The notes under the pieces are model-generated. The model was not told where the DNA came from. It ran no database searches and worked only from the letters and a program-made list of their open reading frames with translations. From Phycisphaerae bacterium (GTDB lineage Bacteria > Planctomycetota > Phycisphaerae > SM23-33): a DNA stretch of 64,000 bases. Below are positions 1,258 to 43,025 of the stretch, piece after piece; positions within the stretch are counted from its first letter, which is position 1; every line of letters starts with the position of its first letter. The position numbers were made by a program, and so were the translations under genes. The stretch is taken from positions 32,657 to 96,656 of the forward strand of contig JBKHDI010000001.1 in assembly GCA_046541415.1 (NCBI GenBank). Reading direction: 5' to 3'.

Positions 1258-3423
1258 GTGGAGAAATGGATGAATTCCACCAGGGCAACGGATGCCGATG
1301 GGAAGCACCTCAGCCGGATCGCCAATGCTGCTGCGCCGCCCGCGCGTCTGCTCGACAGGCTGATCACAGCACGCTCCAAGCCCGTGGTCTATACCGCACT
1401 GGCCGTGCTGCTGGTCTTCTCGGGCTTCCGCGTGGGGCTGTTCATCGGCAGCTGGGCCCTGGTCCAGTCCGTGGGGTTGGGCGATATCGCCCAGAGCCTC
1501 CTGCTTGGACTGCGATTCGACCTCAAATCCCTGGGCTACATGCTCCTGCCGATGGTCCTGCTGGTGGGCCTGATCCCGGTCGATGCCTTCTCCTACACCT
1601 GGCTGCGGTGGACGCTGAACGTCTACGCCGGCCTGATGGTGCTTCTGGCCATCGCTGCCGAGATCATCGGGACGTACTTCTTCCTCTACTACGGCCGGCG
1701 GCTGAACTCCATGGCCCTGCAGTATCTCGAACACTACCACGAGATCCTGGGCCACATCTGCAACCAGTACCCGGTCTGGCTGCTGGTCGTGTCCGTTTTG
1801 GTCGGTCTGGCCGGCAGCTGTCTGCTGTTCAACAAGCTCTTCTGGTCCGGCAGGCGACCGCGACGCACGCGGTTCAGCCGCCTGATCCACGGCGTCGTCA
1901 TGATCGCCCTCTGCGCGTTGGCCATTCGCGGCATCGGCAGAGAGCCGCTGTCCAACGTCAACGGCAGCACGTACTTCACCAACAACAACCTGGTCAACGA
2001 GCTCAGCCGCAACAATCTGGCCACGTTTGCTTCCGCCTTCTACTGCAGCGTCTTCGAGCCGTGGGAGGAAGGCGAGTTCTTCCCCTTCCCGGCTGCCTCC
2101 GACGCGACCGAACACGTCGCCGACATGGTCTATCAGCCCAATGACATCCCCCTGAACGACCCGGTCAACCCCCTGTGGCGCGTCACCGAGACCGGTCGCC
2201 AGCCGTTGGACGTCAATGTCGTGCTGATCATCATGGAGTCCATGGCCGGCCGGAGCGTCGGCGCCCTGGGCTATCAGCCCGATTACACCCCCAACCTGAC
2301 CCGGATGTGCGAACAGGGGATGTACTTCGAGAACATGTTCGCCATCGGCTACCGGACCAACAAGGGGCTGACGGGCCTGCTCTGCTCCCACCCGGACGTG
2401 GGGGGACAGAACCTGATGAAGCGCCCCGAGGCGATCGGCCGCTACAGGACTCTCCCGGTCGTCATGGCCGAGAAGGGCTACCGCACGATGTTCTTCTACG
2501 GCGGCGACCCCGAGTTCGACAACATGCGGGAGTTCCTCGAGCAGGGCGGCATGCAGGAAATGTACTGCCAGGACACCATGCATTCCGGCCCGCGAGGCGG
2601 GTTCGGATACTCGTGGCAGGACGAGGTGGTCTTTGACAAGACCCACGAAGTCCTTTCCCAGGTCCCCTCCGACGAGCGATTCTTCGCCGTCGTCCTGACC
2701 CTCTCCAACCACGACCCGTGGGATGTCCCCTCCGGCAGGACGCCCGTTGTCAGCGCAGGCGAAGACAATCCCATGGGACGGATGAAGAACAGCTACCGCT
2801 ACGCCGACTGGGCACTGAACCGCTTCTTCGAAAAAGCCCGCGAAACCAACGCGCCGTATCTGCAGAATACACTCTTCGTCCTGGTCGCCGACCACGGCCA
2901 GCAGGCCGAACTGAACCGCACCAAGATGCTCGACGCCCCCGGATTCCGCATCCCCTGCCTCTTCTACGCCCCGGGGATGCCCGGCCTGGTCCAGCGTCAG
3001 CGGATCTCGACCGTCTGCAGCCAGATCGACCTGGCCCCGACGCTGCTGAGCTTCCTCGGTGGCAGGTATGAACACAGCTTCCTGGGCCGCAACGTGCTGT
3101 CCATCGCACCGGGCGACGGTTTCGCCATGCTGCGAGACTTCGAGCCGCTTGGGTTCGTCCGTGGCGACAAGCTCGTCATCCGCCCACCGCGGTCATGGCC
3201 CCGGTTGTACCGACTCGACCGGACCTCCATGAAAGAACTGGAGCTCTCCGGAGACAATAGCAAGCTGGTCGACGCGCTGGACAAGGACATGCTCTCTTAT
3301 TACGGGCTGGCCCGGTATCTGCTGGGGAAAAAAGCTTTCGCCGCTCCGGCGGCCGAACTGCTGGCTGGCTTTGAAGAAAGCTCCTCTTCGGCGAAAGACC
3401 ATCACGGTCCAGTCTATCCGTAA
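1258..3423 (+). CDS. LTA synthase/phosphoglycerol-transferase family membrane protein (N-terminal polytopic TM domain + sulfatase-like extracytoplasmic domain)
   Basis: Five predicted TM helices in first ~200 aa, then sulfatase-fold motifs (VVLIIMESMAGRS..., NLTRMCEQGMYFENMF...). GTG 1258 or ATG 1270 start. Confidence 0.6.
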   Translation: MEKWMNSTRATDADGKHLSRIANAAAPPARLLDRLITARSKPVVYTALAVLLVFSGFRVGLFIGSWALVQSVGLGDIAQSLLLGLRFDLKSLGYMLLPMVLLVGLIPVDAFSYTWLRWTLNVYAGLMVLLAIAAEIIGTYFFLYYGRRLNSMALQYLEHYHEILGHICNQYPVWLLVVSVLVGLAGSCLLFNKLFWSGRRPRRTRFSRLIHGVVMIALCALAIRGIGREPLSNVNGSTYFTNNNLVNELSRNNLATFASAFYCSVFEPWEEGEFFPFPAASDATEHVADMVYQPNDIPLNDPVNPLWRVTETGRQPLDVNVVLIIMESMAGRSVGALGYQPDYTPNLTRMCEQGMYFENMFAIGYRTNKGLTGLLCSHPDVGGQNLMKRPEAIGRYRTLPVVMAEKGYRTMFFYGGDPEFDNMREFLEQGGMQEMYCQDTMHSGPRGGFGYSWQDEVVFDKTHEVLSQVPSDERFFAVVLTLSNHDPWDVPSGRTPVVSAGEDNPMGRMKNSYRYADWALNRFFEKARETNAPYLQNTLFVLVADHGQQAELNRTKMLDAPGFRIPCLFYAPGMPGLVQRQRISTVCSQIDLAPTLLSFLGGRYEHSFLGRNVLSIAPGDGFAMLRDFEPLGFVRGDKLVIRPPRSWPRLYRLDRTSMKELELSGDNSKLVDALDKDMLSYYGLARYLLGKKAFAAPAAELLAGFEESSSSAKDHHGPVYP

Positions 3424-5023: not shown

Positions 5024-6475
5024 ATGCAGCCGCTTACGACCCGTTTTGCCCCCTCGCCGACAGGCCATCTCCACGTGGGATCGGCCCGGACAGCTCTCTT
5101 CGCCTACCTGCTGGCCCGCAAGACCGGCGGAACGTTCGTTGTCCGCATCGAGGACACCGACCGCAGCCGACACATCGAAGAAGCCGTCGACATGATCGTC
5201 CAGGACCTCCGATGGCTGGGGCTGGAGTGGGATGAGGGAATCGAAGTCGGCGGAGCAAACGGGCCATACCGGCAGTCCGAGCGCCTTGAACTCTACGCCC
5301 GGTACATCGAAACGCTCCTGGAGGACGGCAAGGCCTATTACGCCTTCGATACGCCCGAGCAGCTCGATGCCATGCGGGGAAAAGCCCGGGCCGAGAAGAA
5401 AGACTTCCTCTACCCCCGGCCGGAGACGTTCCCCTCTGTCGCCGAGGCCCAGGCGGCCCGAGAGGCGGACAAGCCCGTGGTTGTCCGGTTCGCCTGCCCC
5501 GATCGCGACGTGACGGTCCAGGACGACGCTTTCGGCGAGGTGACAACACCGGCGGCCGTGCTGGACGATTTCGTCATCCAGAAGGCCGACGGCTATCCGA
5601 CATTCTACCTGGCCAACGTGGTCGACGACGCGTTGATGGGCATCAACTACATCACCCGAGGCCAGGAGTTCCTCGGTCAGTCGTGGCGACAGACCCTGCT
5701 GCGTGAGGCCCTGGGATTCGAAGAGCCCGGATGCTGCCACCTGCCACTGATCATGGACATGCAGGGCCGTAAGCTCTCCAAACGCGACGGCGACGTGGAC
5801 GTCGGAAGCTTCCGCGCAGCCGGTTACCTGCCCGAGACGTTGGTGAACTTCGTGGCCCTGCTGGGCTGGAACCCCGGCGGGGACCAGGAGAAGATGTCCC
5901 TGGAGCAGCTTGTCGAGCTGTTCAGCGTCGAGCGGATCGGCAAGACCAACGCGAAGTTCGACCGCGACAAATTGCTGGCCTTCAACACCGACGCCCTGGC
6001 CGCGGCCCAGACCGATCGCCTTGTCGCCGGCTTCAGGGACTACCTGTCCCTGAACGAGTCGCATATCCCGGTCAGCGATGATGCCCTGCTGGGGCGGATC
6101 GTCGACTGCAACCGCGGCTATAAGACCTTCGCCGACCTGAAGGACAAAGTCGACGTGCTCTTCGGCCCCGACGACGCGTTTGCCTACGTCGACAAGGCCG
6201 TTACGAAGGTCCTGGCCAAGAACGACGGACAGGGCTACGAGGTGCTGGAGAAGCTGATCGAGCCGCTCGGCCGGGTCGAGTGGACAGGCCAAGCGCTGCA
6301 CGAGATGATCGAGTCGTTCTGCGAGGCCAACGAACTGGGCATGGGCAAGGTGGCCCAGCCGCTGCGTGTGGCGCTTACCGGCAACACCGTCAGCCCGCCG
6401 ATTACCGATACGCTCGAATTCGTCGGCAGGGAGGCCTGCCTGGCCCGTATTCGGCGCTGCCTGGCCAGGCGGTGA
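5024..6475 (+). CDS. gltX: glutamate--tRNA ligase
   Basis: HIGH-type motif PSPTGHLHVG, KMSK-type motif KLSKRDG, class I GluRS architecture. Start at ATG 5024 (MQPLTTRFAPSPTG). Confidence 0.92.
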   Translation: MQPLTTRFAPSPTGHLHVGSARTALFAYLLARKTGGTFVVRIEDTDRSRHIEEAVDMIVQDLRWLGLEWDEGIEVGGANGPYRQSERLELYARYIETLLEDGKAYYAFDTPEQLDAMRGKARAEKKDFLYPRPETFPSVAEAQAAREADKPVVVRFACPDRDVTVQDDAFGEVTTPAAVLDDFVIQKADGYPTFYLANVVDDALMGINYITRGQEFLGQSWRQTLLREALGFEEPGCCHLPLIMDMQGRKLSKRDGDVDVGSFRAAGYLPETLVNFVALLGWNPGGDQEKMSLEQLVELFSVERIGKTNAKFDRDKLLAFNTDALAAAQTDRLVAGFRDYLSLNESHIPVSDDALLGRIVDCNRGYKTFADLKDKVDVLFGPDDAFAYVDKAVTKVLAKNDGQGYEVLEKLIEPLGRVEWTGQALHEMIESFCEANELGMGKVAQPLRVALTGNTVSPPITDTLEFVGREACLARIRRCLARR

Positions 6476-6484
6476 TCGCCCGGA

Positions 6485-9400
6485 TCAGTCGTCCTTTTCC
6501 TGCAGGTAGGGCGGGTAGCGGTAGTAGACCTGCAATGTCAGCGTGGCGGTGGCGGTGGTGTATGTCCGTCCGCCGACGCGGCCCCAGCGGCTGTCGGGAT
6601 CGAAGCTGCCCGCCTCGCCGCCCCGGTTTTCCTGCAGCTTGACCAGATAGTCCCGCATGACCTTGTTCCAGCGGTCCCACTGCGGGCCCTGGACCTGCAT
6701 CAACGCCAGCGAGCAGTAGTACCACGAGTAAAAGTTCCGCTCGCGATTGCGCCGACTGGGAACGTGCTTGAGGATGAGATCGCCGGCCTTGCGGATCTCG
6801 GAGTCCGACGGCGTTTCACCCATCAGGATGCGGCTGAAGATCGCCTCAGCTGTCATCGCCGGCGATACCTTCCTCTTGTCGGTATACCCTGCCAGCCCGT
6901 CGCGGTTGGTGACACCGTGGATGTAGGCCAGCGTCCGCTTGCGTGTTTCATCGGGGATCTGCAGACCCAGGCGCGAGACGCTGTGCAGGGCCATCACCTG
7001 CCAGCCGACGACGGACATGTCGCCCTTGTCCTTGTCTTCCCAGTAAGGCTTGTATCGCCAGCCGCCGGTCTGGGGGTTCTGGGCACGGATGATGAACTTC
7101 GCCGCCCGGATCGCCGCGTCGCGGTACTTCGGCTCGCCGGACATCGCCGCTGCTTCCGACAGCGCGATCGTCGCGATGCCGTGGGCGTACATGTTCCCGC
7201 CGCCGCGCAGATCGCCATCCTGCTTCTGGTTCTCGACGAGGTAATCGACTGCCTGCGTGACGGTCTTTCGGTACAGGCTCTCCTGGCCGGGCCTGTGGTC
7301 GGCCGCCAGGTAGCTCAGAGCCGCCAGGCCCGTCAGGGCCATGTCGGGTCTGCCGTGATGGTTGTCCTTCTTGTACGTCCAGCGGCCGTCCTTCTCCTGC
7401 TCGCGGGCCATCCAGGCCAGGGCCTTGGCGACGGCAGCTTCGGACTCCTCCGAGCCGCCCATCTTGCGGATCATCTCCTGTCGCTGCGGGAAGCTGCGCC
7501 TGCGGATAGAGAGTGGGCTGGTCAGCCGCCCAGGATCCAACGTGCCCACCATGGCCAGTTCTTCCGGCACGGGCTTGAGCATCTCGCCGATGTCCTCTGC
7601 GGGCCTTTGGGCGGGCGTTTCAGCCAGCAGCTGCTCGGCGATCGAATCGGCCGCCGGGGCGTCCAGCGACTCGATCAGCCGTGTTCTTTTGGCAGGTGCC
7701 TCATCGGCGCGGGTCTGTGAAAGGGGCCCGGGCTGGATCTTCTCGACGTCGACCGCGTCGGCCGCGGTCAGCGGGTGCTCCTCATGGGCGATCTTCTCCC
7801 GGCTGGGCTGGATCACCGGCTGGAGGCGCGGGTCCTGGGCAGCCTGGGGGAGGTTGACCTGGATCTGCTCGGCCGGGTCGACCGGGTCGACAGCCGGGGC
7901 GTAGGCGATCTCGGTCGGGCCGATGTCATCGGTCGGCTCGACAACAGGCACGGTGGCCACGTCGATCTCCGGGCGATGGGTCGCGTCGGCAGAGGGCCTG
8001 GCCCGGGCGACCTGGACTTCATCGGAGGCCTGGCGGACCTGCGGGGCAGCGTCGGCGGCGAGTTTGTCGGAAGTCTCGGCCGGGGCGGCGGGGACGACTT
8101 CCGGCCCGGCGAGCACCTCGGCCGGTTCGGGCTGGGCCTCGACGGGTACGGTCAAATCCTGTTGCGAAGGCAGGGGGGCCTCGGCGAACATGGGTGCATC
8201 GGAGGCCGGGGCCGGCTCTGCCGGCTGGGTCTCAGCCCGGACACGGACCGGCTCGACGACATTTTCCACACGGGCGATCTCGACGGATTGCTCTGGGTGG
8301 ACTTCGGGCCTGGCCTCATCGGCGGCGACCCGCTTGGCCGGTTCGGGCTCGAACCGCGGCTGGGGTTGTTGCTCCGGTGGATCGGGCAGGCGGATCTGCT
8401 CGGCCGCTACCGGCGGGATCGGTTGCGGCGCGGTCGGCTGTTGGGTCTTCTGCGTCTCAGCGGGGGGCACGGAAGGCTCGTTCAGTTCAGCCGGCGCGGG
8501 TCGGACGCGCGGGGCAGGGACGGTTTCCGCCCGGGCTACGTCGACCTGTCGCGGGTCCTGGACGGGCAACTGCGAGACCGACTCACGGATCTCCATTTTC
8601 GCCTGGGCCTCGGGGGCCAGTTCCAGCGAGACGCTCTCGATCAGGCCCGCCTTCTCGGCGACGTACTCGTAGGCCTCCTGGCTGACGAAGACCAGCCCGA
8701 GCAAAACCGTAAGCAGGATGTGCAGCAGGACGCTGGCAGCGATGGCCTTCTGCAGGGCGGACAGGTGGTCGTACCCGACGGCCTTGAGAAAGAGCATCGC
8801 CGGGACCAGCAGGGCCAGGGCCCCGGCCAGCATCCACCAGGACCAGTGGCCCGGCAGGGAGCGGCTGGTCTGCTCGGGGTAGACCTCGCGAGAGATCGCC
8901 TGGTAGAGGCTGTAGAGCCCTTCGCGGCCGGCGCGGTCGGAGCTGAAGACCAGCGTAAAGCCCTCGTCCGTCAGTTCCGGGTCGGTCTCGTTGTAGGCGC
9001 TGTTGATTTCCGGGCCCAGATTGACAGGCCCCTCCGACTTGCCCCGCAGCCGCAGGCGGTAGAGGTCGAAGCCGCCGTGGCCGCGAGGGCGGTTGGAGGC
9101 AAAGTAGAGGAAATCCCCGGCTGGCGAGACGGCGCAGGCTCCTTCATTCCACTTGGTGTTGGCGCCCAGCAGTGTCTCGGCCGGATGGTAGGCCAGACCA
9201 TCGGCGGGTTGGGGTTCTGTCGCGTCCTGCTGTTGCTGGTCGGCCTGCTCAGCGGGGGCCTTGGGCCAGGCGACGAACAGATCGTAGTCGCCCAGGTCGC
9301 CTTGGCGGACGGTGGCCTTCCAGTCGTTCTCGCGTCGCTGGGCAGCCAGGCGATTGGTCGCGAAGAACAGCCGCCCGTCGGGGGCAGGGGCGGGCGAGTA

Positions 9401-9982
9401 GTCGTTGTAGGGGCTGTTGATCGCGGGGCCCAGGTTTACCGGCTCAGCCCAGCCTTCATCGGTTCGCCTGGACGCCCAGATGTCGTACTGTCCCTGCCCG
9501 CCCGGGCGGTCGGAATAGAGCAGCAGCCACTTACCGTCGGGCGTCAGGCGGGGGCCCAACTCGTTGTACTCGGTATTGACGGCCTCCAGCGGGGCCGGCT
9601 CGGACCAGCCGGTGTCGGTCTTGTAGGCGACGAAGAGTTCGGCATTGGCGCCGGTTCGCTCGGGCCCGTAGCGGCCTGGCAGACCCCGGACGAAGTAGAG
9701 TTCCTTGCCGTCGGCTGAGAGGGCCGGCTCGTACTCCTGTGCTTCGGAGCGGACGAGGCCCTGGATAGATTCGGGCTGATCCCAGAGGACCTGTCGCGGC
9801 TGGGTTGCATCGCCGTCGCGTCGGAGCCCCGCGCCGTCGGTCCAGACGGTTCCGGCGAAGATCCACCAGGCCAGGACGGCGGCGCCTGCGACGACCGCAC
9901 CGGCCGAGGCCGATGCGGCGATCCACCAGCCCAGCTTGCCCGGTTGGCGGCCTGCGGATTGTCCCTTGCCGTCCTGAGCCAT
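6485..9982 (-). CDS. chimeric envelope protein: N-terminal TM anchor + TolB-like PD40 beta-propeller repeats + two TM helices + ~350-aa Pro/Glu/Ala-rich TonB/TolA-like spacer + C-terminal prenyltransferase/squalene-cyclase-like alpha-alpha toroid repeats
   Basis: PD40-type repeats (SPAPAPDGRLFFATNR, LTPDGKWLLLYSDR, SADGKELYFVR, LTDEGFTLVFSSDR). Hydrophobic segments at aa ~17-45 and ~380-440. Proline-rich low complexity aa ~470-800. C-terminal QxxDG(G)W-type repeats (QKQDGDLRGGG, QNPQTGGWRYKP, QEKDGRWTYK). Start ATG 1 nt after exbD stop. Confidence 0.6.
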   Translation of the reverse strand: MAQDGKGQSAGRQPGKLGWWIAASASAGAVVAGAAVLAWWIFAGTVWTDGAGLRRDGDATQPRQVLWDQPESIQGLVRSEAQEYEPALSADGKELYFVRGLPGRYGPERTGANAELFVAYKTDTGWSEPAPLEAVNTEYNELGPRLTPDGKWLLLYSDRPGGQGQYDIWASRRTDEGWAEPVNLGPAINSPYNDYSPAPAPDGRLFFATNRLAAQRRENDWKATVRQGDLGDYDLFVAWPKAPAEQADQQQQDATEPQPADGLAYHPAETLLGANTKWNEGACAVSPAGDFLYFASNRPRGHGGFDLYRLRLRGKSEGPVNLGPEINSAYNETDPELTDEGFTLVFSSDRAGREGLYSLYQAISREVYPEQTSRSLPGHWSWWMLAGALALLVPAMLFLKAVGYDHLSALQKAIAASVLLHILLTVLLGLVFVSQEAYEYVAEKAGLIESVSLELAPEAQAKMEIRESVSQLPVQDPRQVDVARAETVPAPRVRPAPAELNEPSVPPAETQKTQQPTAPQPIPPVAAEQIRLPDPPEQQPQPRFEPEPAKRVAADEARPEVHPEQSVEIARVENVVEPVRVRAETQPAEPAPASDAPMFAEAPLPSQQDLTVPVEAQPEPAEVLAGPEVVPAAPAETSDKLAADAAPQVRQASDEVQVARARPSADATHRPEIDVATVPVVEPTDDIGPTEIAYAPAVDPVDPAEQIQVNLPQAAQDPRLQPVIQPSREKIAHEEHPLTAADAVDVEKIQPGPLSQTRADEAPAKRTRLIESLDAPAADSIAEQLLAETPAQRPAEDIGEMLKPVPEELAMVGTLDPGRLTSPLSIRRRSFPQRQEMIRKMGGSEESEAAVAKALAWMAREQEKDGRWTYKKDNHHGRPDMALTGLAALSYLAADHRPGQESLYRKTVTQAVDYLVENQKQDGDLRGGGNMYAHGIATIALSEAAAMSGEPKYRDAAIRAAKFIIRAQNPQTGGWRYKPYWEDKDKGDMSVVGWQVMALHSVSRLGLQIPDETRKRTLAYIHGVTNRDGLAGYTDKRKVSPAMTAEAIFSRILMGETPSDSEIRKAGDLILKHVPSRRNRERNFYSWYYCSLALMQVQGPQWDRWNKVMRDYLVKLQENRGGEAGSFDPDSRWGRVGGRTYTTATATLTLQVYYRYPPYLQEKDD

Positions 9983-9983
9983 G

Positions 9984-10406
9984 CTACTCCTTCGTTTCCT
10001 GGGGGATGTAGCCGATGTTGACGCGTTCTATGCCTGTCTTCTGACAAAGCACTGCGGTCTGGTTGAAGAACTTGTGATACGCGTTGGCATCGCAGCGGAG
10101 CAGCACCTTGCGGTCGGGGTTGTCCTGGACCTCGCGAGTCAGCAGTTCCTCCAGTTGCTTGTCGTCATAGAGCTTGCCGGCGATCTCCTTCTTGCCCTCT
10201 GCGGTGATATTGACAATCAACTGGTTCGGCGTGCTGGAAAGCGACTCATTGGCGCTGGCGCGGGTCAGCGTGATGTTCTGGTTGCGTTCCTCTTCGGCAA
10301 AGGTGGTGGCGACCAGGAAGAAGATCAGCAGCAGGAAGACCATGTCGATCAGCGGCATGAGGTTGGGCGGGTCTTCGGAATGGTCGGCTTTGTCACGGAT
10401 GCGCAT
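9984..10406 (-). CDS. biopolymer transport protein ExbD/TolR
   Basis: 140 aa. N-terminal TM (LMPLIDMVFLLLIFFLV) and ExbD/TolR fold sequence. AGGAGA RBS. Confidence 0.85.
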   Translation of the reverse strand: MRIRDKADHSEDPPNLMPLIDMVFLLLIFFLVATTFAEEERNQNITLTRASANESLSSTPNQLIVNITAEGKKEIAGKLYDDKQLEELLTREVQDNPDRKVLLRCDANAYHKFFNQTAVLCQKTGIERVNIGYIPQETKE

Positions 10407-10421
10407 GGTTGCGTCTCCTGT

Positions 10422-11243
10422 TTACGCCGTGGCCGGGGCGGTAGTGGGGGTCTGGTCGGGCTGGGCAGACGCAGGGGCCGGCTCTTCGATGACCAGCGCC
10501 CCTTCGATCAGCTCGACGGATTGCTCGTTCATCTCGTGGACCAGCCGTTCGATCCGCCCGAGGAAGAAGTAATAGAAGATCAGCACGGGAATCGCCACGA
10601 CCAGGCCGCCGAACGTGGTCACCAAGGCCTCGTAAATGCCCTTGGCCAGGCTGGTTGCGCGGCCCAGGCCCTGCTGGCTGGCGACCTGGAAGGCTTGGAT
10701 CATCCCCCAGACGGTCCCGACAAGCCCCAGCATCGGGGCGACTGCTGCGATCGCGTAGAGCATCCGCAGGTTCTTGCGCAGCTTGCTGACCTCGTGGGCT
10801 CCGGCGTCTTCGATGGCTTCCTCGATGGCCTTTTCGCCGCGGTGCATCTTGCGCAGTCCGGCCAGGGCCAGGCGGGCCAACGGGCTGTCATTGGCTCGGC
10901 AGTACTCCATTGCCTCCTTCCGGCCGGCCCCGCCACGATAGACCGACTGCAGTTGGGCCAGGAAGCCCGGCGGGATCACCCGCTTGCGCTGCAGGGCCAT
11001 GAACCGCTCGACGACGACCGCCGCGGCCAGCAGGCTGCAGGCGGCGATGGGGATCATGAACCAGCCGCCCTTGAGCAGGATCTCCAGGATCGACATTTCC
11101 TCGACCTGGGCCTGGTCGTCGTTGTTCTTGGTCTCCGGCGCTGCCTCGGCAGGCTGGGCCACCGCGGCGGACGCGACGGTAAAGAGGATGGCTGCGAGCA
11201 GGAATGTCGCTGAGCGGCGGATGATTCGGCTGCGGGTATTCAC
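10422..11243 (-). CDS. MotA/TolQ/ExbB proton-channel family protein
   Basis: Three TM segments and conserved MotA/ExbB C-terminal region (LGLVGTVWGMIQAF...GGLVVAIPVLIFYYFF). GTG start with AGGAGA RBS. Confidence 0.85.
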   Translation of the reverse strand: MNTRSRIIRRSATFLLAAILFTVASAAVAQPAEAAPETKNNDDQAQVEEMSILEILLKGGWFMIPIAACSLLAAAVVVERFMALQRKRVIPPGFLAQLQSVYRGGAGRKEAMEYCRANDSPLARLALAGLRKMHRGEKAIEEAIEDAGAHEVSKLRKNLRMLYAIAAVAPMLGLVGTVWGMIQAFQVASQQGLGRATSLAKGIYEALVTTFGGLVVAIPVLIFYYFFLGRIERLVHEMNEQSVELIEGALVIEEPAPASAQPDQTPTTAPATA

Positions 11244-11267
11244 GTCTGTCTCCTGTCAGGACTATGT

Positions 11268-14200
11268 TTACTGTTTCAGTTCGGCCAGTCGTTTTCGGGC
11301 GGCTGCGGCGATGGTCTGGTCCTTGTAGTCCTCGACCACGCGGGTGTACTGGCCGATGGCCTCGGACTTGCGCCCCAGCTTCTCCAGAACCCGACCTGCC
11401 TCGTAGAGGGCGTTGGCAGTCCACTTGTCGTAGCCGTAGACGTCGCCGACGACGTAGAAGGCGTCCAGGGCTTCTTTGAGCTTGCCCTCCTCGAAGAAGC
11501 ACTCGCCGAGCTGGAACTGGGCTTTGGCGGCGGTTTCGCCCTGGTGGTCGGAGTCGGCGATCTTCGCGTACCAGTTGCGGGCGTCGGAGTATTTCCGCTG
11601 GTTTTGCAAAGCCCAGCCCGTGCCGTACAGCGCGATGTGCTTGAACTCGTGCTTGTCGAACTTCTTGAGATACTCCTGCCAGGCCTTCAGTGCGTCGCCG
11701 TAGTGGTTCTGCATTTCGCGCACCTCGCCGAGCTTCAGCAGGGCGAACGGTTCCAGATCATCCGCCTTGCCGCTTTGCAGCAGCGTTTCGAGCATGCTCT
11801 CGGCGGTCTGGAAATCCCGGACTTCCTGGGCGGCCAGGCTGCCCTGGTACAGTGCCGACGGGGTCTGCTCGCTGTCGGCATGCGCCTTGGCGTAGGCAGC
11901 AAAGGCGTCGCGCGCCTTGGCCGGCTGATCCAGTTTCTGATAGCACCATCCCTGCCGGTACAGGGCGACTTTTCGCACGGCCGGCGGGGCGGACTCATCG
12001 GCCAGCACCTTTGTCAGCAGTCCCAGAGCTTCGTCGAACTTTTCGCGGGCATAGAGCAGTTCGGCCAGTTCGGCCCGGGCCGGGGTGGCCAGGGGCCCTT
12101 CGGGGAACTTCTCCAGCAGCTTGCGGTAGGATTCGACGGACTGTTCCCTCTGGCCGGAGTCTTTCTGGGCCCAGGCCAGTTCGTACATCGTCTGCTGTGT
12201 GGCGCGTTTGTCGTTGCTGGCCAGTTCGGCCAGGACATCGGCGGCCTTGTCGTGCTGCCCCATTTCCGCCAGGCACGTGCCCACGAGGCGAGCCGCCTGG
12301 TCGTTGTCTTTGGCCAGTTCGCGGAAGATCGGCAGGGCCTTGTCGGGCTCACCGGCCAGGCGCAGGGCCTCTGCCTGGCGGAATCGTGCCTCGCCGCGGT
12401 TGGCGCTGTCGGGGTAGTCCTCGGCAAAGCGGCCAAACCGTTCGGCGGCCGTCTTGTATTCCTTGGCATCGTAGGCGATCCACCCCCGGAGCAACTGGGC
12501 CGAGGCGGTCACCGGCTTGGGCGCCTTGGCCTGGATGATCCGTTCGAGCAGTTTCTCGGCCGGTTCGGGCTGATCCTTCTGGTAGTGGATCTCAGCCAGC
12601 TCGAACCAGGCGTAGGGGACGATGGCCGACTCCTGGGCTTTGACCTTCTCGAAAGGTTCGAGGACTTTGGCAGCCTCGTCCTGTTTGTCCGCGCGGCGCA
12701 GGGCGCGGGCGAGGTAGTAGCGGCCTTCGAGCCGTCCTGCCTTGGCTTCGCTGCGAACGAAGCGGTGGAGGATGTCGGCGGCTTGGGCGGGCTGGTCGGT
12801 CTTCAGCAGGGCCTGGCCGAGGTAGAGCATGGCCTGCCTGCCGATGCGGTCGTCGCCGGCGGATTTTTGCTCGGCGACGGGTTTGAGCACGTCGATGGCC
12901 TTCTTGCTGTCTCCGACCAGAAATGCGCTCTGCCCGCGACGCAGGGCGAAGCGGCGGGCATTGTCGCCTTCGGCCGAGGCTGCCAGCCGGCTGAATGTCT
13001 TGGCGGCCTGGTCGTACTGTCCGAGCGTGAAGTGACACTCGGCGGCCAATTCAGCGGCCGGACCGGCCATGGGGTGGTCATCCTGTCGGGCGATTTTCTC
13101 GGCCAGTTCGATCGCCTCCTTCGTCTTGCCCGCCTGCTGGAGGCACCAGGCGCGGCGGTAGGCGGCGTCGGGGGCGTAGGGACTCTGGGCGTGACGTTCG
13201 GTGACGGTTTTGAAGTCCTCGGCAGCCTGGGCGTGCTGGCCCAGCTTCATCCGGCAGGTGGCCAGATCGTATCGGGCGGCGGCTTCTTCGGGCAGGTTGC
13301 CCTTGCTGTCCAACACCTCGTCCAGCAGCTTGGCGGCTGCATCGTGGTCATCCTTGGCCATGCGGGCCCGGGCCAGCCAGTATCGTCCGCGGCGGCTGCG
13401 GTCCTTGTCCGATTTGATGACCTGCTGGAAGGTGCGGGCGGCATCGTCCGCCTTGCCGGCCTTGAGTTGCGAGATCCCCATCTGGAATCGACCGGCCGGG
13501 GCGTACGGGCCTTCGTGGGTCTTGAGCAGCTGCTCGAAGGCCTCGACGGCGTCGCTATGCTTGCCGGCCCGCTGCAGCGCGACAGCCAGGCTGTAGCGTC
13601 CGTCGGCCTTGCGGCCCTCGTCGGCGCGGTCGATCAGTTTTCGGTAGGCGGCCAGGGCTTTGTCGGTCTGGCCGGCTGCTTCGTAAGACTGGCCCGCCAG
13701 CAAGAGGGCGTTGAGCAGGTAGGGGCTGTTCTCGACGGCGGCGACGGCCTGGAAGCTCTCGGCTGCGGCAGCGGGATTGCCGCTTTTTCGCTGCGACAGA
13801 CCTTTGTAGTACAGCACGCCCGTGCGGTAGCCGCTGTCCTTGTGCTTCTTGAGAAAGTCATCCGCCTTCTTGGTCGCCTCGTCGGTCTTGTCCATCTGGT
13901 AGAGCAGGCGTACGATGTTCAGACCGGCCAGTTCAGCCAGGGGATTGTCGGGATGCTTTCCGGCCAGTTCCCCGAACGCCTCCAGGGCCCCGTTCATGTC
14001 GTTGCGGGCCATGCGAGACTGGCCCAGCAGGGCGCGGGCCTCGGGGGCCTGCTGGAAGTCCTTGGATCGGATCGCCTCGATCAGCTGGCGCTCGGCCTCG
14101 GGGTACTTCTTGAGCTGGTAGAGGCTGATGCCCAGGCCATATCGCGCCGCCGCACGATCCCGGTGATCCTTGAAGCGGGAGAGGAACTCTTCGTACTGCG

Positions 14201-14354
14201 TGGCGGCTGTTTCGTAGCGCTTGGCCCTGAGGCTGCCGTTGGCGGCCAGGAGCTTCTTCGCCGCGGCGGTCTGGTCCTGTCCCTGCACCGACCAGGCCGG
14301 GAGCAGCAGGGCTGCTGCGAAAAGAAGAACCGCCCATTGTGCCTGTTTCCGCAT
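11268..14354 (-). CDS. secreted tetratricopeptide-repeat protein (~1028 aa, signal peptide)
   Basis: Signal peptide MRKQAQWAVLLFAAALLLPAWSVQG. Dozens of 34-residue TPR-like units (A..Y..G..Y...G...A pattern) throughout. First gene of the ExbBD operon. Confidence 0.75.
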   Translation of the reverse strand: MRKQAQWAVLLFAAALLLPAWSVQGQDQTAAAKKLLAANGSLRAKRYETAATQYEEFLSRFKDHRDRAAARYGLGISLYQLKKYPEAERQLIEAIRSKDFQQAPEARALLGQSRMARNDMNGALEAFGELAGKHPDNPLAELAGLNIVRLLYQMDKTDEATKKADDFLKKHKDSGYRTGVLYYKGLSQRKSGNPAAAAESFQAVAAVENSPYLLNALLLAGQSYEAAGQTDKALAAYRKLIDRADEGRKADGRYSLAVALQRAGKHSDAVEAFEQLLKTHEGPYAPAGRFQMGISQLKAGKADDAARTFQQVIKSDKDRSRRGRYWLARARMAKDDHDAAAKLLDEVLDSKGNLPEEAAARYDLATCRMKLGQHAQAAEDFKTVTERHAQSPYAPDAAYRRAWCLQQAGKTKEAIELAEKIARQDDHPMAGPAAELAAECHFTLGQYDQAAKTFSRLAASAEGDNARRFALRRGQSAFLVGDSKKAIDVLKPVAEQKSAGDDRIGRQAMLYLGQALLKTDQPAQAADILHRFVRSEAKAGRLEGRYYLARALRRADKQDEAAKVLEPFEKVKAQESAIVPYAWFELAEIHYQKDQPEPAEKLLERIIQAKAPKPVTASAQLLRGWIAYDAKEYKTAAERFGRFAEDYPDSANRGEARFRQAEALRLAGEPDKALPIFRELAKDNDQAARLVGTCLAEMGQHDKAADVLAELASNDKRATQQTMYELAWAQKDSGQREQSVESYRKLLEKFPEGPLATPARAELAELLYAREKFDEALGLLTKVLADESAPPAVRKVALYRQGWCYQKLDQPAKARDAFAAYAKAHADSEQTPSALYQGSLAAQEVRDFQTAESMLETLLQSGKADDLEPFALLKLGEVREMQNHYGDALKAWQEYLKKFDKHEFKHIALYGTGWALQNQRKYSDARNWYAKIADSDHQGETAAKAQFQLGECFFEEGKLKEALDAFYVVGDVYGYDKWTANALYEAGRVLEKLGRKSEAIGQYTRVVEDYKDQTIAAAARKRLAELKQ

Positions 14355-14405
14355 CGTTTTATCTCCAGGCAATCAGAAGAACAACATGAAGGCGCCGGCC
14401 CGTCG

Positions 14406-14419
14406 AAGGCCGCGGCCTT
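14406..14419. repeat. perfect 14-bp palindrome AAGGCCGCGGCCTT between AEC transporter 3' end and TPR-operon start
   Basis: Read directly. Possible terminator stem/operator. Confidence 0.4.
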
Positions 14420-14505
14420 GCCGGTTTCCCCGAACCTCCTCCGGGGACGACAATTGCAGATACAACAGACAGCAGCGGGAAAGGTGACGTAGCAATTGGC
14501 CCAAA

Positions 14506-15552
14506 TCAGCCCATGGCAAAACCGGGCAGAATCTGGCCTTGGGCCAAGAAGATCACCAGCGTCACCGTCACCGGGGAAAGCAGCGTCGAGTAGAGCACGG
14601 CGCGGGCGGCGTAGTCGGGGTGGTTATCGAACTCCATGTTCAGCAGCATGCAGTTGACGGCCGTGGGAGAACTGGTGGAGATCAGCAGCATCTGGGCCTT
14701 GAAGCCCTCCAGGCCGAAGAGGTAGACCAGGCCGACGCCGATCGCCGGACCGGCCAGCAGACGCAGGGCGACCGACCAGCGGACGGGGTATTTCGGCCCA
14801 CCGGGGCGGACCAGGGCCAGCTGGGCCCCGAGCGTCAGCAGGGCGACGGGGACAAACGCGTTCTTGACGTAGACCAGGAACGCCCAGAAGGGGCTGAGGG
14901 CATCGGCGGCGGGCCCGGCAGTCTCTCCCAACAGTCCCCGGACGTAGTTGGTGGTAAGTCCGGCAGCCAGCGCGTAGATCGGCGGGAACTTCAGGATGGC
15001 CATCAGGTTCTTGCGCCAACAGGCGCCCTTGCCCCCCGCGGCAATCAGCACGCCGACAGTGAAGGTGAAGAAGTTCTGCGTGATCATCACGTAGGCTTGC
15101 ATGGTCGCAGCCTGGGCGGAGAGGTCCTGGCCGTCGATGGTTTGTCCTTCGAAGGCAAACTTCTGCAGCGGCAGGCCGAAATTGCCAGAGTTGTGCAGGA
15201 TCGTCGTCAGGACCATCACGCTGATCTGGTCTCTCGGCACGCCGCGCAGCAGTGCGACCAGGACCGTCAGCACGGCCATGGCCGCCAGCAGCGACACGGC
15301 GAAGCCAACAACCTGCAGGGCCTGCAGCGGGGATACCGTCGAGGTGACGATCGAGTAGTAGATAATGCCCGGCATGACGAAGTAGAAGTTCAACCGCTTG
15401 AGCGTGAGCATCTCCAGGCCGAGCCTACGCTGCATGAAGAAGCCCGTGGCCGCCAGCAGCAGAACAGGCAGGACGATGTCATAGAAGATGTAAGCCAGCT
15501 GTGCGGGCAACTGGGGCAGTTGCTCGATCAGGTTGGCCAGGCAGTTGTCCAT
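14506..15552 (-). CDS. AEC family transporter (auxin efflux carrier/malate permease-like)
   Basis: 10 predicted TM helices, two-repeat AEC topology, 348 aa. Confidence 0.75.
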   Translation of the reverse strand: MDNCLANLIEQLPQLPAQLAYIFYDIVLPVLLLAATGFFMQRRLGLEMLTLKRLNFYFVMPGIIYYSIVTSTVSPLQALQVVGFAVSLLAAMAVLTVLVALLRGVPRDQISVMVLTTILHNSGNFGLPLQKFAFEGQTIDGQDLSAQAATMQAYVMITQNFFTFTVGVLIAAGGKGACWRKNLMAILKFPPIYALAAGLTTNYVRGLLGETAGPAADALSPFWAFLVYVKNAFVPVALLTLGAQLALVRPGGPKYPVRWSVALRLLAGPAIGVGLVYLFGLEGFKAQMLLISTSSPTAVNCMLLNMEFDNHPDYAARAVLYSTLLSPVTVTLVIFLAQGQILPGFAMG

Positions 15553-15620
15553 GGGGGGCCCTTACAAGGGGGTCTCAGGGCCCGAGATGATACGGCGATT
15601 CGCCCGGCCGGTCCAGAAAT

Positions 15621-15660
15621 GAAAAAACGCGGGGCCCATGGCTTTTGGCCGGACCCCGCG
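15621..15660 (-). terminator. intrinsic-terminator-like hairpin on minus strand (CGCGGGG..CCCCGCG + TTTTTTC) 70 nt upstream of AEC start
   Basis: Minus strand reads CGCGGGGTCCGGCCAAAAGCCATGGGCCCCGCG followed by TTTTTTC. No gene ends here. Confidence 0.4.
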
Positions 15661-15845
15661 CTTCTTGGGAAAGGAAAGTTGGGCTTTCCGTTACAGGGAA
15701 CCTACGATCCGGCCACGCCGGGGGCCAACTCCCGGGGGCAGAAATCTGCCAGATCTGCAGTCGGCCATGCGTCAGGGGACAAAATGACAGCGGCGATGCC
15801 AGGGATTCGTGTTACAAGTCATGATTGTAAAAACTTTTGCGAGTC

Positions 15846-19319: not shown

Positions 19320-19517
19320 CGCCGGATACAGGCTATATCAACGGATGTCCAATTGAATTGTCCCCCGCCGGACCGGAAGTGACGTTGCAGCCTCTGCAAA
19401 GGCCGGCGTTGAGGAAATTCTGCGTTTGTCAAGTCCTGCCAAACCAGTACAGTATTGTCAGGCCCTGCGGGCCGAGGAACGAGACACACAATGGCAGCCC
19501 GACTGCCGGGAGAAATC

Positions 19518-20543
19518 ATGCGTAAGTTGACCATCCTGACTTTGTTGATCCTTGCCTCGGCCACGCAGGGACGGCCTTTTATCCCCCCGGTGGGTTCCAT
19601 GCATGTGCCGATGGCCCTGGCAGAGGCCGAGTTGGTTTTCGTTGTCGATGGCGACGACGTCAAGAGCACCGAGACCGTTAAGCGGAATGTGCCCGTGCCC
19701 GGCAGTGTGGAGAACGGCGAACACAACTGCCAGACCTTCACCACCGACAAGATCGAGATCCTCGGCGGCAAGAGGGCCGAGGCGATGAAGGGCAAGACGC
19801 TGCAGTTCATCAGTCCCGCCATCTCGCAGGCCAACCGGCGAAACCGGCGACTCTACTTCCGCCCGGTCAGTTTCCGCCCCGGCCAGAAGTATCTGGTGGT
19901 GCTCCAGAAAATCGAGAACGTGGACGAGCTCTTTCTGCCTGTCGACGGCGTGCACTTCAGGCCCGCGAACGACCGGACCATCGCCGAAGCCAAGCTCATG
20001 GTCAACCCGGAACGCTGGTCCTGGGGCCGCAGCGACGACTCGGGGCTGCAGTTGGGCCTGATCATCCGTCAGCCCGAGGTGCGGATCTACAAAGTTGCCG
20101 GGCAGGACAGGCAATTCGCCAGTCTCAACGTCATGGTCATGCTCCGCAACACCGGAGACAAACCCGTCCGCCTGAGCCTGCATCCGGACCAGAAGCCGAT
20201 CAAGCTGCTGGCCATGGATGATGAGGGCACCGTAGTCGAGGCATCGCCCTATGCGGGCAAGAAACAGATCTCCCTGGCTTACGGTTCGGTCCTGCCGAAG
20301 TACATCCAGCACGAACTGGCTCCCGGCGAGTTCACCTGCCTGGGCCCCATGGGCCTCTCGCCGTACGGCATGGCCGTGCAGATCCCCGTCAAGGCGGGCA
20401 AGTGGAAGCTCTTCGCCATCTTCGACGGCAAGGATACCGACGGCGGCAGGCTGTGGACCGGCGAGATCCGCTCGCAGGGCGTGGATATCCAGGCCAGCGA
20501 GGGAGTCAGGCCCATCAGGCCCATCCTGCGCCAAGCCGAGTAG
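19518..20543 (+). CDS. hypothetical secreted protein (signal peptide MRKLTILTLLILASATQG)
   Basis: Coherent ORF with signal peptide. No recognisable domain. Confidence 0.55.
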   Translation: MRKLTILTLLILASATQGRPFIPPVGSMHVPMALAEAELVFVVDGDDVKSTETVKRNVPVPGSVENGEHNCQTFTTDKIEILGGKRAEAMKGKTLQFISPAISQANRRNRRLYFRPVSFRPGQKYLVVLQKIENVDELFLPVDGVHFRPANDRTIAEAKLMVNPERWSWGRSDDSGLQLGLIIRQPEVRIYKVAGQDRQFASLNVMVMLRNTGDKPVRLSLHPDQKPIKLLAMDDEGTVVEASPYAGKKQISLAYGSVLPKYIQHELAPGEFTCLGPMGLSPYGMAVQIPVKAGKWKLFAIFDGKDTDGGRLWTGEIRSQGVDIQASEGVRPIRPILRQAE

Positions 20544-20634
20544 TTTCCTCGCAGACCGCGGCTGCTGGTTCCGAACTGTTCCATGTCGGCCTGCAGAGTT
20601 CCGCGCCAACCCCGGACCGTCTGAGAGTAGTCGG

Positions 20635-29783: not shown

Positions 29784-29856
29784 TGGAGCCGAGGGGATTC
29801 GAACCCCTGACCTACGCATTGCGAACGCGTCGCTCTCCCAGCTGAGCTACGGCCCC
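29784..29856 (-). tRNA. tRNA-Ala (anticodon CGC)
   Basis: Minus-strand sequence GGGGCCGTAGCTCAGCTGGGAGAGCGACGCGTTCGCAATGCGTAGGTCAGGGGTTCGAATCCCCTCGGCTCCA folds as cloverleaf. G3:U70 alanine identity pair, anticodon loop TTCGCAA, T-loop GGTTCGAATCC. CCA not encoded. Confidence 0.9.
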
Positions 29857-32160: not shown

Positions 32161-32263
32161 GGCAGGTCCGGCTGGGGGGGTGTTACGTCTATACGGCGGG
32201 GTGCATTCTAGCAGAACCCCGAGTCCTGCCCCAACGCCTGTCTTGCAATTCCGGCCGTCCTGC

Positions 32264-33370: not shown

Positions 33371-33513
33371 GGTATCTCCCGCGGTTGGCTGGCCGCCGGA
33401 TCGAACGGGCAGATCCGACATCAGCGAAGGCTGTCTCTGCTGTTCTAATTGTAGCCTGTCCGGGCGCAGAAAGGTTGCGCCGTCTTGATCCAGACAGCCT
33501 CGCTGCCCGGCGG

Positions 33514-41550: not shown

Positions 41551-41629
41551 CCACCTGGGCCGATGAATGTCCTGTAGACCTGGATGGTCGACTGACCGGC
41601 CCTGTACGGTACCAATGGAGAGACAAACG

Positions 41630-42997: not shown

Positions 42998-43025
42998 CCC
43001 GCGCGATTCATGAGAAAGGCGATCC

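Follow-up and report, generated by a model that had tools for sequence, protein, structure and literature searches.

A probable TolA/TonB-like force transducer with an alpha/alpha-toroid head and a membrane-held TolB-like propeller in Phycisphaerae

TolA and TonB are the textbook carriers of inner-membrane energy to the outer membrane in Gram-negative cells. To our knowledge, a single type of head domain was known for these transducers before 2025, and we know of no recognised tolA and no FtsZ in Planctomycetota. In 2025, TolA/TonB-like transducers with a vWA head, which are encoded behind TPR, tolQ and tolR genes, were proposed for PVC bacteria (Williams-Jones et al., PMC12204202). According to the same study, which is also our source for the biology of the S-x3-H-x6-L docking motif and the 'motor box' of TolA and TonB on their motors, no pal has been reported and no Tol-Pal locus was found in Planctomycetes (PMC12204202). 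A toroid-headed family is not mentioned in the text or supplement of that paper (PMC12204202), and a literature search of incomplete coverage returned no earlier description of such a family, only the vWA-headed analogues.

The window analysed here is a stretch of 64,000 nucleotides from a Phycisphaerae bacterium (assembly GCA_046541415.1, contig JBKHDI010000001.1). From position 9982 down to 6485, its minus strand holds an uninterrupted ATG-to-stop ORF of 1165 aa with a third-position GC of 0.85 over the ORF as a whole. The original prediction gave no strand for this entry; a reading of 6485..9982 on the plus strand was rejected, as stops interrupt the translation. The encoded protein begins with a basic tail and a first transmembrane (TM) helix; a PD40 propeller, the TM2/TM3 hairpin and a linker rich in Pro, Ala and Glu come next, and one (alpha/alpha)6 toroid closes the chain. 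The features of the locus are as follows.

6485..9982, minus strand: whole ORF, 1165 aa plus stop (ATG at 9982; GGAG 6 nt upstream)
9854..9982, minus strand: basic cytoplasmic tail (3 K/R) and TM1 signal-anchor helix, aa 1-43 (hydropathy, AlphaFold2 (AF2))
8882..9847, minus strand: PD40 (TolB-like) beta-propeller, aa 46-367 (Pfam, NCBIfam, AF2, Foldseek)
8780..8845, minus strand: TM2 (out to in), first arm of the hairpin, aa 380-401 (hydropathy, AF2)
8651..8758, minus strand: TM3 (in to out) with S417-x3-H421-x6-L428, aa 409-444 (conservation, alignment with TolA/TonB anchors)
8618..8644, minus strand: candidate 'motor box' strand LIESVSLEL, aa 447-455 (alignment; putative)
7496..8617, minus strand: Pro/Ala/Glu-rich, poorly conserved linker, equivalent of domain II, aa 456-829 (composition, conservation)
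6503..7495, minus strand: single (alpha/alpha)6 toroid with QW-type motifs, aa 830-1160 (Pfam, AF2, structure comparison)
9984..10406, minus strand: ExbD/TolR-like motor subunit, 140 aa (Pfam ExbD, E 1e-21; best NCBIfam match tolR)
10422..11243, minus strand: ExbB/TolQ-like motor subunit, 273 aa (Pfam MotA_ExbB, E 6.7e-33; best NCBIfam match tolQ, E 1.9e-22)
11268..14372, minus strand: secreted TPR protein, 1034 aa (TIGR02795 tol_pal_ybgF, Pfam TPR_6)

The last three genes and the 1165-aa gene form a four-gene operon, which opens with the CpoB-like TPR gene, continues with ExbB/TolQ and ExbD/TolR and ends with the gene of interest, which thus lies next to exbB/tolQ and exbD/tolR in the same orientation, as is characteristic of tolA and tonB. 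The stop codon of ExbD ends one base ahead of the ATG of the 1165-aa gene, an SD sequence is in place, and the gene is translationally coupled to ExbD. The transmembrane Asp (LIDMVF) is retained in the ExbD/TolR-like subunit, and so are the GLxGTV and TM3 Thr motifs in the ExbB/TolQ-like subunit. The TPR protein, whose start is likely the Met seven codons into the ORF, contains nine CpoB/YbgF-type stretches (TIGR02795 tol_pal_ybgF, 261.7 bits against a cut-off of 90.1) behind a Sec signal peptide that lacks a lipobox Cys. A promoter and terminator scan of 6200-15800 revealed no excess over shuffled expectation, and Rfam and tRNA scans gave no match related to the operon. The operon context, like the docking motif in TM3 described below, had been overlooked in the original prediction.

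That prediction had regarded the protein as chimeric and had considered a frameshift in what proved to be the TM2/TM3 region, at about 8600-8900 (aa 361-461). Instead, we found a conserved family: the full protein has 653 homologues, with a shared architecture among the matches listed, and at least 120 of them, 1058-1799 aa long, show the same architecture in independent assemblies from NCBI, JGI, ENA and Logan projects, while the toroid, which is very common, retrieves on its own 3,598 representatives of 50%-identity clusters at E<=1e-30. Because the listed homologues from independent assemblies repeat the same continuous architecture, the frameshift is excluded. More generally, an artefact in which two or three genes were joined by frameshift, mis-assembly or annotation error, for which nothing speaks except the unusual length and the mixed domain content, is already refuted by the family data, and we assign it practically no probability: a 100% identical protein is on record (MAG Phycisphaerae protein ACLFUJ_00130, on a 160-kb contig) and the TM2/TM3 junction is conserved residue by residue. 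The 1165-aa protein is genuine, and it is widely conserved in Phycisphaerae (Planctomycetota) as a protein of the inner membrane.

The gene order is conserved as well. ExbB and ExbD genes lie upstream in each of the 31 long-form loci for which 2.5 kb or more of upstream sequence is available, and the TPR gene does so in all 27 with at least 6 kb. Outside Phycisphaerae, shorter relatives of about 530-820 aa occur, in which the propeller is absent and the hairpin, motif, linker and toroid are kept; these short forms have two TM helices, including an equivalent of TM2, and ExbB was present in 23 of their 28 loci (Pirellulales, Isosphaerales, Kuenenia and others). In the Isosphaerales loci, an ExbD gene was not detected in the interval that separates ExbB from the toroid gene. 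Among the sequences sampled, the propeller is confined to Phycisphaerae, and some homologues carry a CarboxypepD_reg domain. Downstream of the toroid gene and upstream of the TPR gene, no partner gene proved generally conserved over 79 loci, nor was a conserved outer-membrane or peptidoglycan partner gene detected beside the operon; the neighbours were occasional, such as a TatA-like ORF (9 of 68 loci) and a BlaI/BlaR1-like pair (about 10 of 30).

Hydrophobic segments at aa 18-43, 380-399 and 412-435 (Kyte-Doolittle) and helices at aa 16-42, 380-401 and 409-444 (AF2, at moderate confidence with a block-mean pLDDT of about 63-84) agree with the predicted basic N-terminus followed by a hydrophobic helix, and the second hydrophobic stretch indeed comprises two TM helices. 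The proposal that both domains are periplasmic with a TM hairpin between them is supported, since the positive residues in the tail and in the TM2-TM3 loop, a pattern which is stronger in homologues, and the TolA/TonB-type orientation of TM3 fit an N-in/propeller-out/loop-in/C-out topology. Within TM3, S417 and H421 are invariant in the family alignment (H421 in 45 sequences), S-x3-H is located inside a hydrophobic segment in 58 of 71 family ORFs, and a search of 1079 ORFs (334,352 residues) for the strict S-x3-H-x6-L pattern returned 27 family proteins and only 4 other ORFs. The motif can be aligned with the anchors of E. coli TolA and TonB; S417, H421 and L428 of the SHLS motif (S-x3-H-x6-L-x3-S) are present and the final Ser is replaced by Phe432. 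About 20 aa past TM3, the conserved alternating hydrophobic strand aa 447-455, a region of low confidence in the AF2 monomer, aligns with IDAVMVD of TolA and ISVTMV of TonB. Where TolA and TonB have a single N-terminal TM helix, this protein has three, the SHLS helix being the last. The anchor region gave no significant match to the TolA/TonB models of Pfam and NCBIfam, and a comparison of aa 371-470 with all PDB chains, including the TolQRA and ExbBD-TonB entries, yielded nothing below E 0.4. What links the protein to TolA/TonB is a short motif together with the order of the genes and of the domains.

A TonB-like proline-rich spacer, as originally proposed, follows the anchor: aa 445-830 (386 aa) contain 15.8% Pro, 16.1% Ala and 11.4% Glu, in line with the extended Pro-rich domain II of TolA and TonB. 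Across the family, linkers span 104-1036 aa with about 14% Pro, with a median of 488 aa in long forms versus 130 aa in short forms.

The propeller is joined to the membrane at both ends via connectors of 2-12 residues and is modelled with a pLDDT mostly >90. Of the five PD40-type repeats predicted originally, all five appear as four-stranded blades in the AF2 model, in which the N-terminal strands 46-67 may close or add a blade, whereas Pfam scores only four (PD40, E 2.4e-25). The best solved match in Foldseek is E. coli TolB (E 2.5e-11), while TIGR02800 (TolB) scores 20.2 bits against a cut-off of 343. In NCBIfam, the propeller region, and this region only, matches PorE (E 1.2e-38; 132.8 bits against a cut-off of 600) and CHU_0125 (E 8.4e-36; 123.7 against 620). 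These best curated matches, one of them to a T9SS component, could point to a part of a surface-motility or secretion apparatus with a TolQR-like motor, either Agl-Glt-like or PorE/T9SS-like, as could the CarboxypepD_reg domain of some homologues, which also occurs in PorE, and the Myxococcus Agl motor, which is accompanied by large TPR proteins and TonB-like proteins. However, both scores are far under the family cut-offs, the OmpA-like domain is absent, and no other T9SS or Glt genes are located in the operon or conserved nearby, and we consider such a role very unlikely.

At the C-terminus, the predicted alpha/alpha toroid was confirmed by Pfam, the AF2 model and structural matches, which reveal one confidently folded toroid of about 330 aa (pLDDT 92.5). 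Searches for a TonB_C or TolA-III domain (Pfam, NCBIfam) gave no match, the C-terminus being all-helical, and Pfam found no vWA domain in the protein. Thirteen toroid residues (Tyr, Trp, Glu, Asp, Ser and Arg) are invariant at an overall identity of 36-55%, a pattern to be expected if the toroid has a single conserved ligand or partner. Among the solved structures closest to the toroid, nearly all are enzymes (OSC, drimenyl-PP synthase, GH76, epimerases), the acidic E943 and D988 are invariant amid invariant aromatics, and relatives are named 'terpene cyclase/mutase family protein' in databases, which would suit a membrane-tethered periplasmic enzyme or binding protein for an isoprenoid, peptidoglycan or polysaccharide substrate. 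The linker would then be a tether, the link to ExbBD would reflect co-regulation, and no force would be transduced. Against this, the DxDD general-acid motif is not conserved (D.DD in 2 of 48 and 5 of 44 family sequences, and absent from the 1165-aa protein), and the Asp-x-Cys of the prenyltransferase Zn site is absent and reads D988-x-S990 with an invariant Ser, if the equivalence suggested by motif similarity is correct. SQHop_cyclase_C, just above its cut-off (30.1 vs 26.1), is the only cyclase-type Pfam model passed; Prenyltrans stays under it (22.9 bits vs 26.5), and the scores are far under every cyclase family cut-off (TIGR01787, 30.5 vs 322.7; TIGR01507, 18.5 vs 431). A tethered enzyme would also leave the invariant S-x3-H helix, the phylum-wide ExbB/ExbD adjacency and the translational coupling unexplained, and we regard it as improbable. 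The database label in planctomycetal genomes is poor evidence for lipid cyclisation.

What looked like an odd fusion becomes a TolA/TonB-like transducer because of the ExbD-coupled TPR-ExbB-ExbD operon and the docking motif in TM3. We favour, with moderate confidence, a TolA/TonB-like force transducer in which the toroid replaces the usual C-terminal domain and a lineage-specific TolB-like propeller is held at the inner membrane. Domain content, topology elements, motif conservation and synteny were observed; from them we infer how the protein would dock on the motor, transmit force and what kind of partner it would have. The operon would encode a PMF-driven envelope system of a secreted CpoB-like TPR protein, an ExbB/TolQ pentamer-type subunit, ExbD/TolR and the transducer. 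S417, H421 and L428 would dock TM3 onto the rim of the ExbB/ExbD motor, the strand aa 447-455 would touch the periplasmic domain of ExbD, and the linker of about 375 residues would cross the periplasm, while the toroid as the head would grip a conserved partner at the level of the peptidoglycan or the outer membrane, so that movement of the motor could pull on it. TM2, the extra helix ahead of TM3, would be ancestral to the whole family, to which Phycisphaerae would have added TM1 and the propeller at the N-terminus. The propeller would rest on the inner membrane beside the motor, flat against its periplasmic side, and probably docks the TPR protein or another envelope partner. Three TM helices, or two in short forms, versus one in TolA/TonB, the Phe in place of the last Ser of SHLS, the lack of a significant sequence match for the anchor region, the moderate AF2 confidence for the TM helices, the lack of a conserved outer-membrane or peptidoglycan partner gene beside the operon, a toroid fold typical of enzymes and the ExbD gap in the Isosphaerales loci speak against this transducer.

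With the same docking and pulling, the protein might also energise import in a Ton-like manner, the toroid engaging an outer-membrane transporter or a polysaccharide-uptake structure for macromolecule import into the large planctomycetal periplasm. We consider this unlikely, since the accessory parts are of the Tol type, no transporter gene was found conserved beside the operon, and there is no TonB C-terminal domain to bind a TonB box. For the force transducer, a Tol-like role in envelope maintenance or division is favoured over nutrient import because of the CpoB-like repeats above their cut-off, the motor subunits that lean towards TolQ/TolR and the TolB-like propeller. More tentatively, and with considerable doubt, the TPR-TolQ-TolR-toroid operon may stand in functionally for Tol-Pal in Planctomycetota: the toroid of a PMF-driven arm would grip peptidoglycan or an outer-membrane component and keep the outer membrane coupled to the wall over a periplasm of unusual width. 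Planctomycetia divide by budding; the propeller could mark an adaptation of the machine to binary fission in Phycisphaerae, where it might bring the CpoB-like protein and wall synthases to the site of division. If the protein is a transducer, it provides a second non-canonical head, a new kind of anchor with several helices and a TolB-like propeller clamped to the inner membrane, and with them a concrete candidate for the coupling of outer membrane, wall and cytoplasmic membrane in Planctomycetota. Cultured strains (Tautonia, Tundrisphaera, Anatilimnocola) carry the short form, which makes this idea testable.

Compared with TolA and TonB (E. coli TolQRA, ExbBD-TonB), the protein is likewise encoded directly behind ExbB/TolQ and ExbD/TolR, and shares the N-in/C-out S-x3-H-x6-L helix, the long Pro-rich periplasm-spanning region and a globular head; a short conserved strand after the helix is a candidate motor box. 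It differs in its head, a toroid of about 330 aa instead of the alpha/beta TonB_C/TolA-III domain of about 100 aa that is partner-bound by strand addition, in one (short form) or two (1165-aa protein) extra TM helices with the propeller between TM1 and TM2, and in a linker three to four times the length of that of TonB; sequence similarity to TolA/TonB is not significant. With the vWA-headed transducers of the same superphylum it has in common a non-canonical head on an SHLS-type anchor with a disordered linker and an operon that opens with TPR and tolQ-like genes, whereas the toroid, the added propeller, the two- or three-helix anchor and a single tolR-like gene instead of a heterologous pair set it apart (PMC12204202). 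Like TolB, it contains a periplasmic PD40 propeller encoded with TolQ/TolR-like and CpoB-like genes; unlike TolB, which combines an N-terminal alpha/beta (TolA-binding) domain with a six-bladed propeller in a soluble protein with a cleaved signal peptide, it lacks the alpha/beta domain and is not soluble, and its propeller, held at the inner membrane by a TM helix on either side, can therefore not shuttle to outer-membrane Pal. PorE and CHU_0125 of Bacteroidota are the closest curated propeller models, and TPR, PD40 and, in some members, CarboxypepD_reg echo the domain set of PorE; however, PorE is one outer-membrane lipoprotein with an OmpA-like peptidoglycan-binding domain at its end, whereas in the present system the TPR repeats belong to a secreted protein of their own, the propeller is bound to the inner membrane and a toroid forms the globular end. 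In contrast to SHC, OSC, MstE and PFT-beta, the toroid is single, predicted to be periplasmic and devoid of a conserved DxDD or Zn ligands, one toroid standing against the beta-gamma two-toroid architecture of class II terpene cyclases (SHC/OSC), and glycan-active six-hairpin enzymes are structurally nearly as similar to it as toroids of the terpene cyclase/prenyltransferase type.

The 1165-aa protein is encoded by a single ORF of 1165 codons plus stop, which occupies positions 6485-9982 on the minus strand; the plus-strand frame of this interval is broken by stops. GC at third position is 0.85, similar to the adjacent genes, a GGAG lies six bases 5' of the ATG at 9982, and the stop of the preceding gene is located one base before this ATG. 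The operon comprises the following genes:

14372..11268, minus strand: secreted TPR protein (1034 aa) with nine CpoB/YbgF-model stretches (261.7 bits vs a cut-off of 90.1) and a Sec signal peptide without lipobox
11243..10422, minus strand: ExbB/TolQ-type protein, top curated match tolQ
10406..9984, minus strand: ExbD/TolR-type protein, top curated match tolR, transmembrane Asp present
9982..6485, minus strand: 1165-aa propeller/toroid ORF, fourth gene after the TPR, ExbB and ExbD genes

Hydropathy revealed three hydrophobic segments in the 1165-aa protein (TM1-TM3; aa 18-43, 380-399 and 412-435), the last of which is followed by 386 residues with 15.8% Pro, 16.1% Ala and 11.4% Glu. Pfam identified PD40 repeats at aa ~80-360 (E 2.4e-25) and, at aa 844-1150, weak matches to SQHop_cyclase_C, Prenyltrans and Pec_lyase. 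AlphaFold2 was run on family alignments separately for aa 1-470 and aa 815-1165. The first model (mean pLDDT 80) shows a helix (16-42), a confident beta-propeller (46-367), for which E. coli TolB is the best solved structural match (E 2.5e-11), and two further helices (380-401 and 409-444); the second is an all-helical domain (pLDDT 92.5). Every part of the originally predicted architecture, i.e. two periplasmic domains and a TM hairpin, is thus present according to hydropathy, Pfam and AlphaFold2, the strand having been left unstated.

The same prediction had regarded the protein as a chimera, with a possible frameshift at the TM2-TM3 junction. A Phycisphaerae MAG encodes an identical protein on a 160-kb contig, and a homologue search with the 1165-aa protein returned 653 proteins, of which the 120 listed (1058-1799 aa; drawn from NCBI, JGI, ENA and Logan assemblies) have a common architecture. 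The TM2-loop-TM3 junction is kept almost residue by residue among sequences that are just 35-45% identical overall. We therefore reject a chimera or frameshift. The earlier interpretation holds in part for topology and domains; the motor context was absent from it. Relatives carry the public labels 'hypothetical protein', 'terpene cyclase/mutase family protein' or 'prenyltransferase/squalene oxidase repeat-containing protein'.

The ExbB/ExbD-type motor genes of the operon have their key residues intact, and the operon is flanked by housekeeping genes, namely gltX downstream (convergent) and an AEC-type transporter upstream. A scan with one genome per species yielded 79 related loci. Among the long forms, i.e. 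relatives containing the propeller, ExbB and ExbD are located directly upstream in all 31 loci with at least 2.5 kb of upstream sequence, and the TPR gene is present in all 27 loci with at least 6 kb. Specific labels of long-form loci are Phycisphaerae, Tepidisphaerales or generic Planctomycetota; the few under other names stem from automatically labelled bins. One Planctomycetota MAG harbors the complete TPR-ExbB-ExbD-propeller/toroid operon twice, as tandem copies (locus L031, 5597-22988). In about 10 of 30 long-form loci (Phycisphaerae), a BlaI-like repressor and a ~1060-aa BlaR1/M56-like membrane protein are encoded directly upstream of the TPR gene (e.g. loci L003, 2042-2440, and L011, 1935-5120), which is suggestive of regulation by envelope stress; the 64-kb window lacks the pair.

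The remaining genes of the window are unrelated to the operon. Two adjacent radical SAM/SPASM genes beside two ORFs without Pfam match (434 and 290 aa; 29927-34386, minus strand) may represent a peptide-maturation cluster. At 41567-46878 (plus strand), a gene for an LPP20-domain lipoprotein precedes an unassigned ORF of 378 aa, and this range also includes the gene of an OprB porin; lipoprotein and porin belong to the outer membrane of the organism and are unlinked to the operon. An unusually long tRNA-Arg(tcg) of 89 nt called by ARAGORN (46546-46634, plus strand), at which the Rfam tRNA model gave no report at its gathering threshold, could be either a spurious prediction or an atypical tRNA. 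Two overlapping ORF calls with high GC3 (362 and 631 aa; 19455-22146, plus strand) gave no Pfam hit at E<=0.01, and the Pfam domain of a 721-aa sulfatase (1258-3423, plus strand) begins only at residue 320, after a long unassigned N-terminal region. Two of these neighbouring features are:

29784-29856: tRNA-Ala(cgc), just downstream of the radical SAM/SPASM group
45529-46878, plus strand: OprB-family porin, outer-membrane component

In TM3, S417 and H421 are invariant in an alignment of 11 sequences, and H421 also in 45 sequences. When aligned with the N-termini of E. coli TolA and TonB, the Ser, His and Leu (L428) of TM3 coincide with those of the two proteins. About 20 residues further on, an alternating strand that is conserved in the family, LIESVSLEL here and AVNLE or MVVLAD in relatives, aligns with IDAVMVD of TolA and ISVTMV of TonB, at the 'motor box' position. 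The S-x3-H-x6-L pattern of TM3 agrees with SHLS, the motor-binding motif of TolA and TonB (PMC12204202). The strict pattern was searched for in 1079 coding-like ORFs (334,352 residues) taken from the window and the 79 loci; of its 31 occurrences, 27 fall within the toroid-protein family. Among 71 family ORFs, 58 carry the relaxed S-x3-H in a hydrophobic segment, and about half of the others are 5'-truncated. TolA/TonB models and solved chains showed no statistically significant sequence similarity to the 1165-aa protein, and its TolA/TonB-type assignment is based on motif, gene order and domain order. Because of the N-in/C-out orientation of the TolA/TonB anchor, the basic tail and the basic TM2-TM3 loop, the N-terminus is predicted to be inside, the propeller outside, the TM2-TM3 loop inside, and linker and toroid outside; the charge signal is modest in the 1165-aa protein and clearer in homologues, e.g. 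RAAGYRHLSLLQK.

QW-type motifs occur in the toroid, as does GGW...D-x-S..GW, a signature of prenyltransferase-like repeats. Three observations speak against the enzyme families that the toroid resembles: DxDD, the general-acid motif of class II cyclases, is missing, being present in just 2 of 48 and 5 of 44 family sequences, the protein scores far under the cut-offs of cyclase families, and the Asp-x-Cys of the prenyltransferase zinc site is replaced by Asp-x-Ser with an invariant Ser. Thirteen residues (Y932, E943, W975, Y977, D988, S990, W994, Y1033, Y1085, Y1088, W1102, Y1154 and R1155) do not vary among 48 sequences of 36-55% identity. Such conservation points to a single conserved ligand or partner, and the modelled fold may be compatible with a lipid, a protein or a glycan (peptidoglycan, LPS); the data speak neither for nor against the hopanoid proposed in the earlier prediction.

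An exhaustive search with the toroid gave 3,598 representatives of 50%-identity clusters at E<=1e-30. The toroid alone also recovers shorter proteins (~530-820 aa) from Pirellulales, Isosphaerales (among them the isolates Tautonia sociabilis and Tundrisphaera lichenicola), Anatilimnocola and Kuenenia, along with a small number of bins labelled as Verrucomicrobiota or Kiritimatiellia. A Pfam scan of these short forms found neither a propeller nor any further domain, and their N-terminus consists of two TM helices with a short basic loop between them. ExbB is located upstream in 23 of 28 loci, ExbD in 17 of 28 (at tblastn sensitivity) and the TPR gene in 12 of 23. Because the propeller-less forms keep hairpin and toroid, the ancestral unit is, as judged from sequence, TM hairpin, linker and toroid, and TM1 plus propeller is a putative N-terminal addition, seen in this sample solely in Phycisphaerae-type genomes. 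The unusual topology would follow from adding a periplasmic domain to an N-terminus already facing the periplasm, which requires one extra membrane pass.

Further variants were observed. In the Isosphaerales loci L052 (7461-11248, Tautonia sociabilis), L068, L074 and L077, the toroid gene starts ~185 nt after an ExbB-like gene without an ExbD-like ORF between them, and the S-x3-H helix is retained; in these loci the motor may do without its second subunit or obtain it from a gene at another site. About one third of the long forms (homologues P0113, P0116 and P0120, loci L003 and L009, and others) have a ~230-aa C-terminal extension beyond the toroid, containing CarboxypepD_reg. The toroid query matches some relatives, e.g. 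P0029 (1799 aa), over two stretches, and these proteins may have two toroids. An 885-aa variant without PD40 (L004, 9461-12115) begins with ~150 unassigned residues, followed by three TM helices with S-x3-H, and may carry another N-terminal module in place of the propeller.

The observed parts are an ExbB/ExbD-type motor, a partner that is translationally coupled to it and has a docking motif of the TolA/TonB type, a long linker rich in Pro, and a conserved globular head; on balance we favor a force transducer of the TolA/TonB type. TM3 would dock on ExbB, the strand after the membrane would engage ExbD, the linker would cross the periplasm, and the toroid would hold a partner, with the proton-motive force serving to pull or release it. 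In long forms the linker comprises 371-1036 residues and could cross a very wide periplasm; TonB-like domain II has ~100 residues (PMC12204202). Because connectors of only 2-12 residues bind both propeller ends to the membrane in the AlphaFold2 model, the propeller, as modelled, is unable to work at the outer membrane in the manner of TolB; we speculate that it is a platform beside the motor, e.g. for the CpoB-like protein. A role in envelope maintenance or division appears more likely than import, because the accessory parts are all Tol-type in flavour. That the operon substitutes for Tol-Pal in Planctomycetota, a phylum without reported pal, recognised tolA or FtsZ, is a tentative idea that we regard as rather unlikely.

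TolB, PorE/CHU_0125, prenyltransferases and terpene cyclases each have one module in common with the 1165-aa protein, which lacks features that define each of these groups. The closest functional analogues are TolA and TonB, from which it differs in its head domain and its non-single-helix topology. The closest published analogues of the toroid-headed family are the vWA-headed transducers of PVC bacteria, which sit behind TPR-tolQ-tolR-tolR genes (PMC12204202); that paper mentions neither a toroid head nor the TPR-ExbB-ExbD-toroid operon, and for Planctomycetes its supplement gives only 'no pal' and one possible tolB. The literature searched, the coverage of which is incomplete, held no prior description of the toroid-headed family. 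We regard the protein, with somewhat better than even chances, as a TolA/TonB-like force transducer, of which it would be a new variant with a toroid head, a multi-helix anchor and a TolB-like propeller clamped at the inner membrane.
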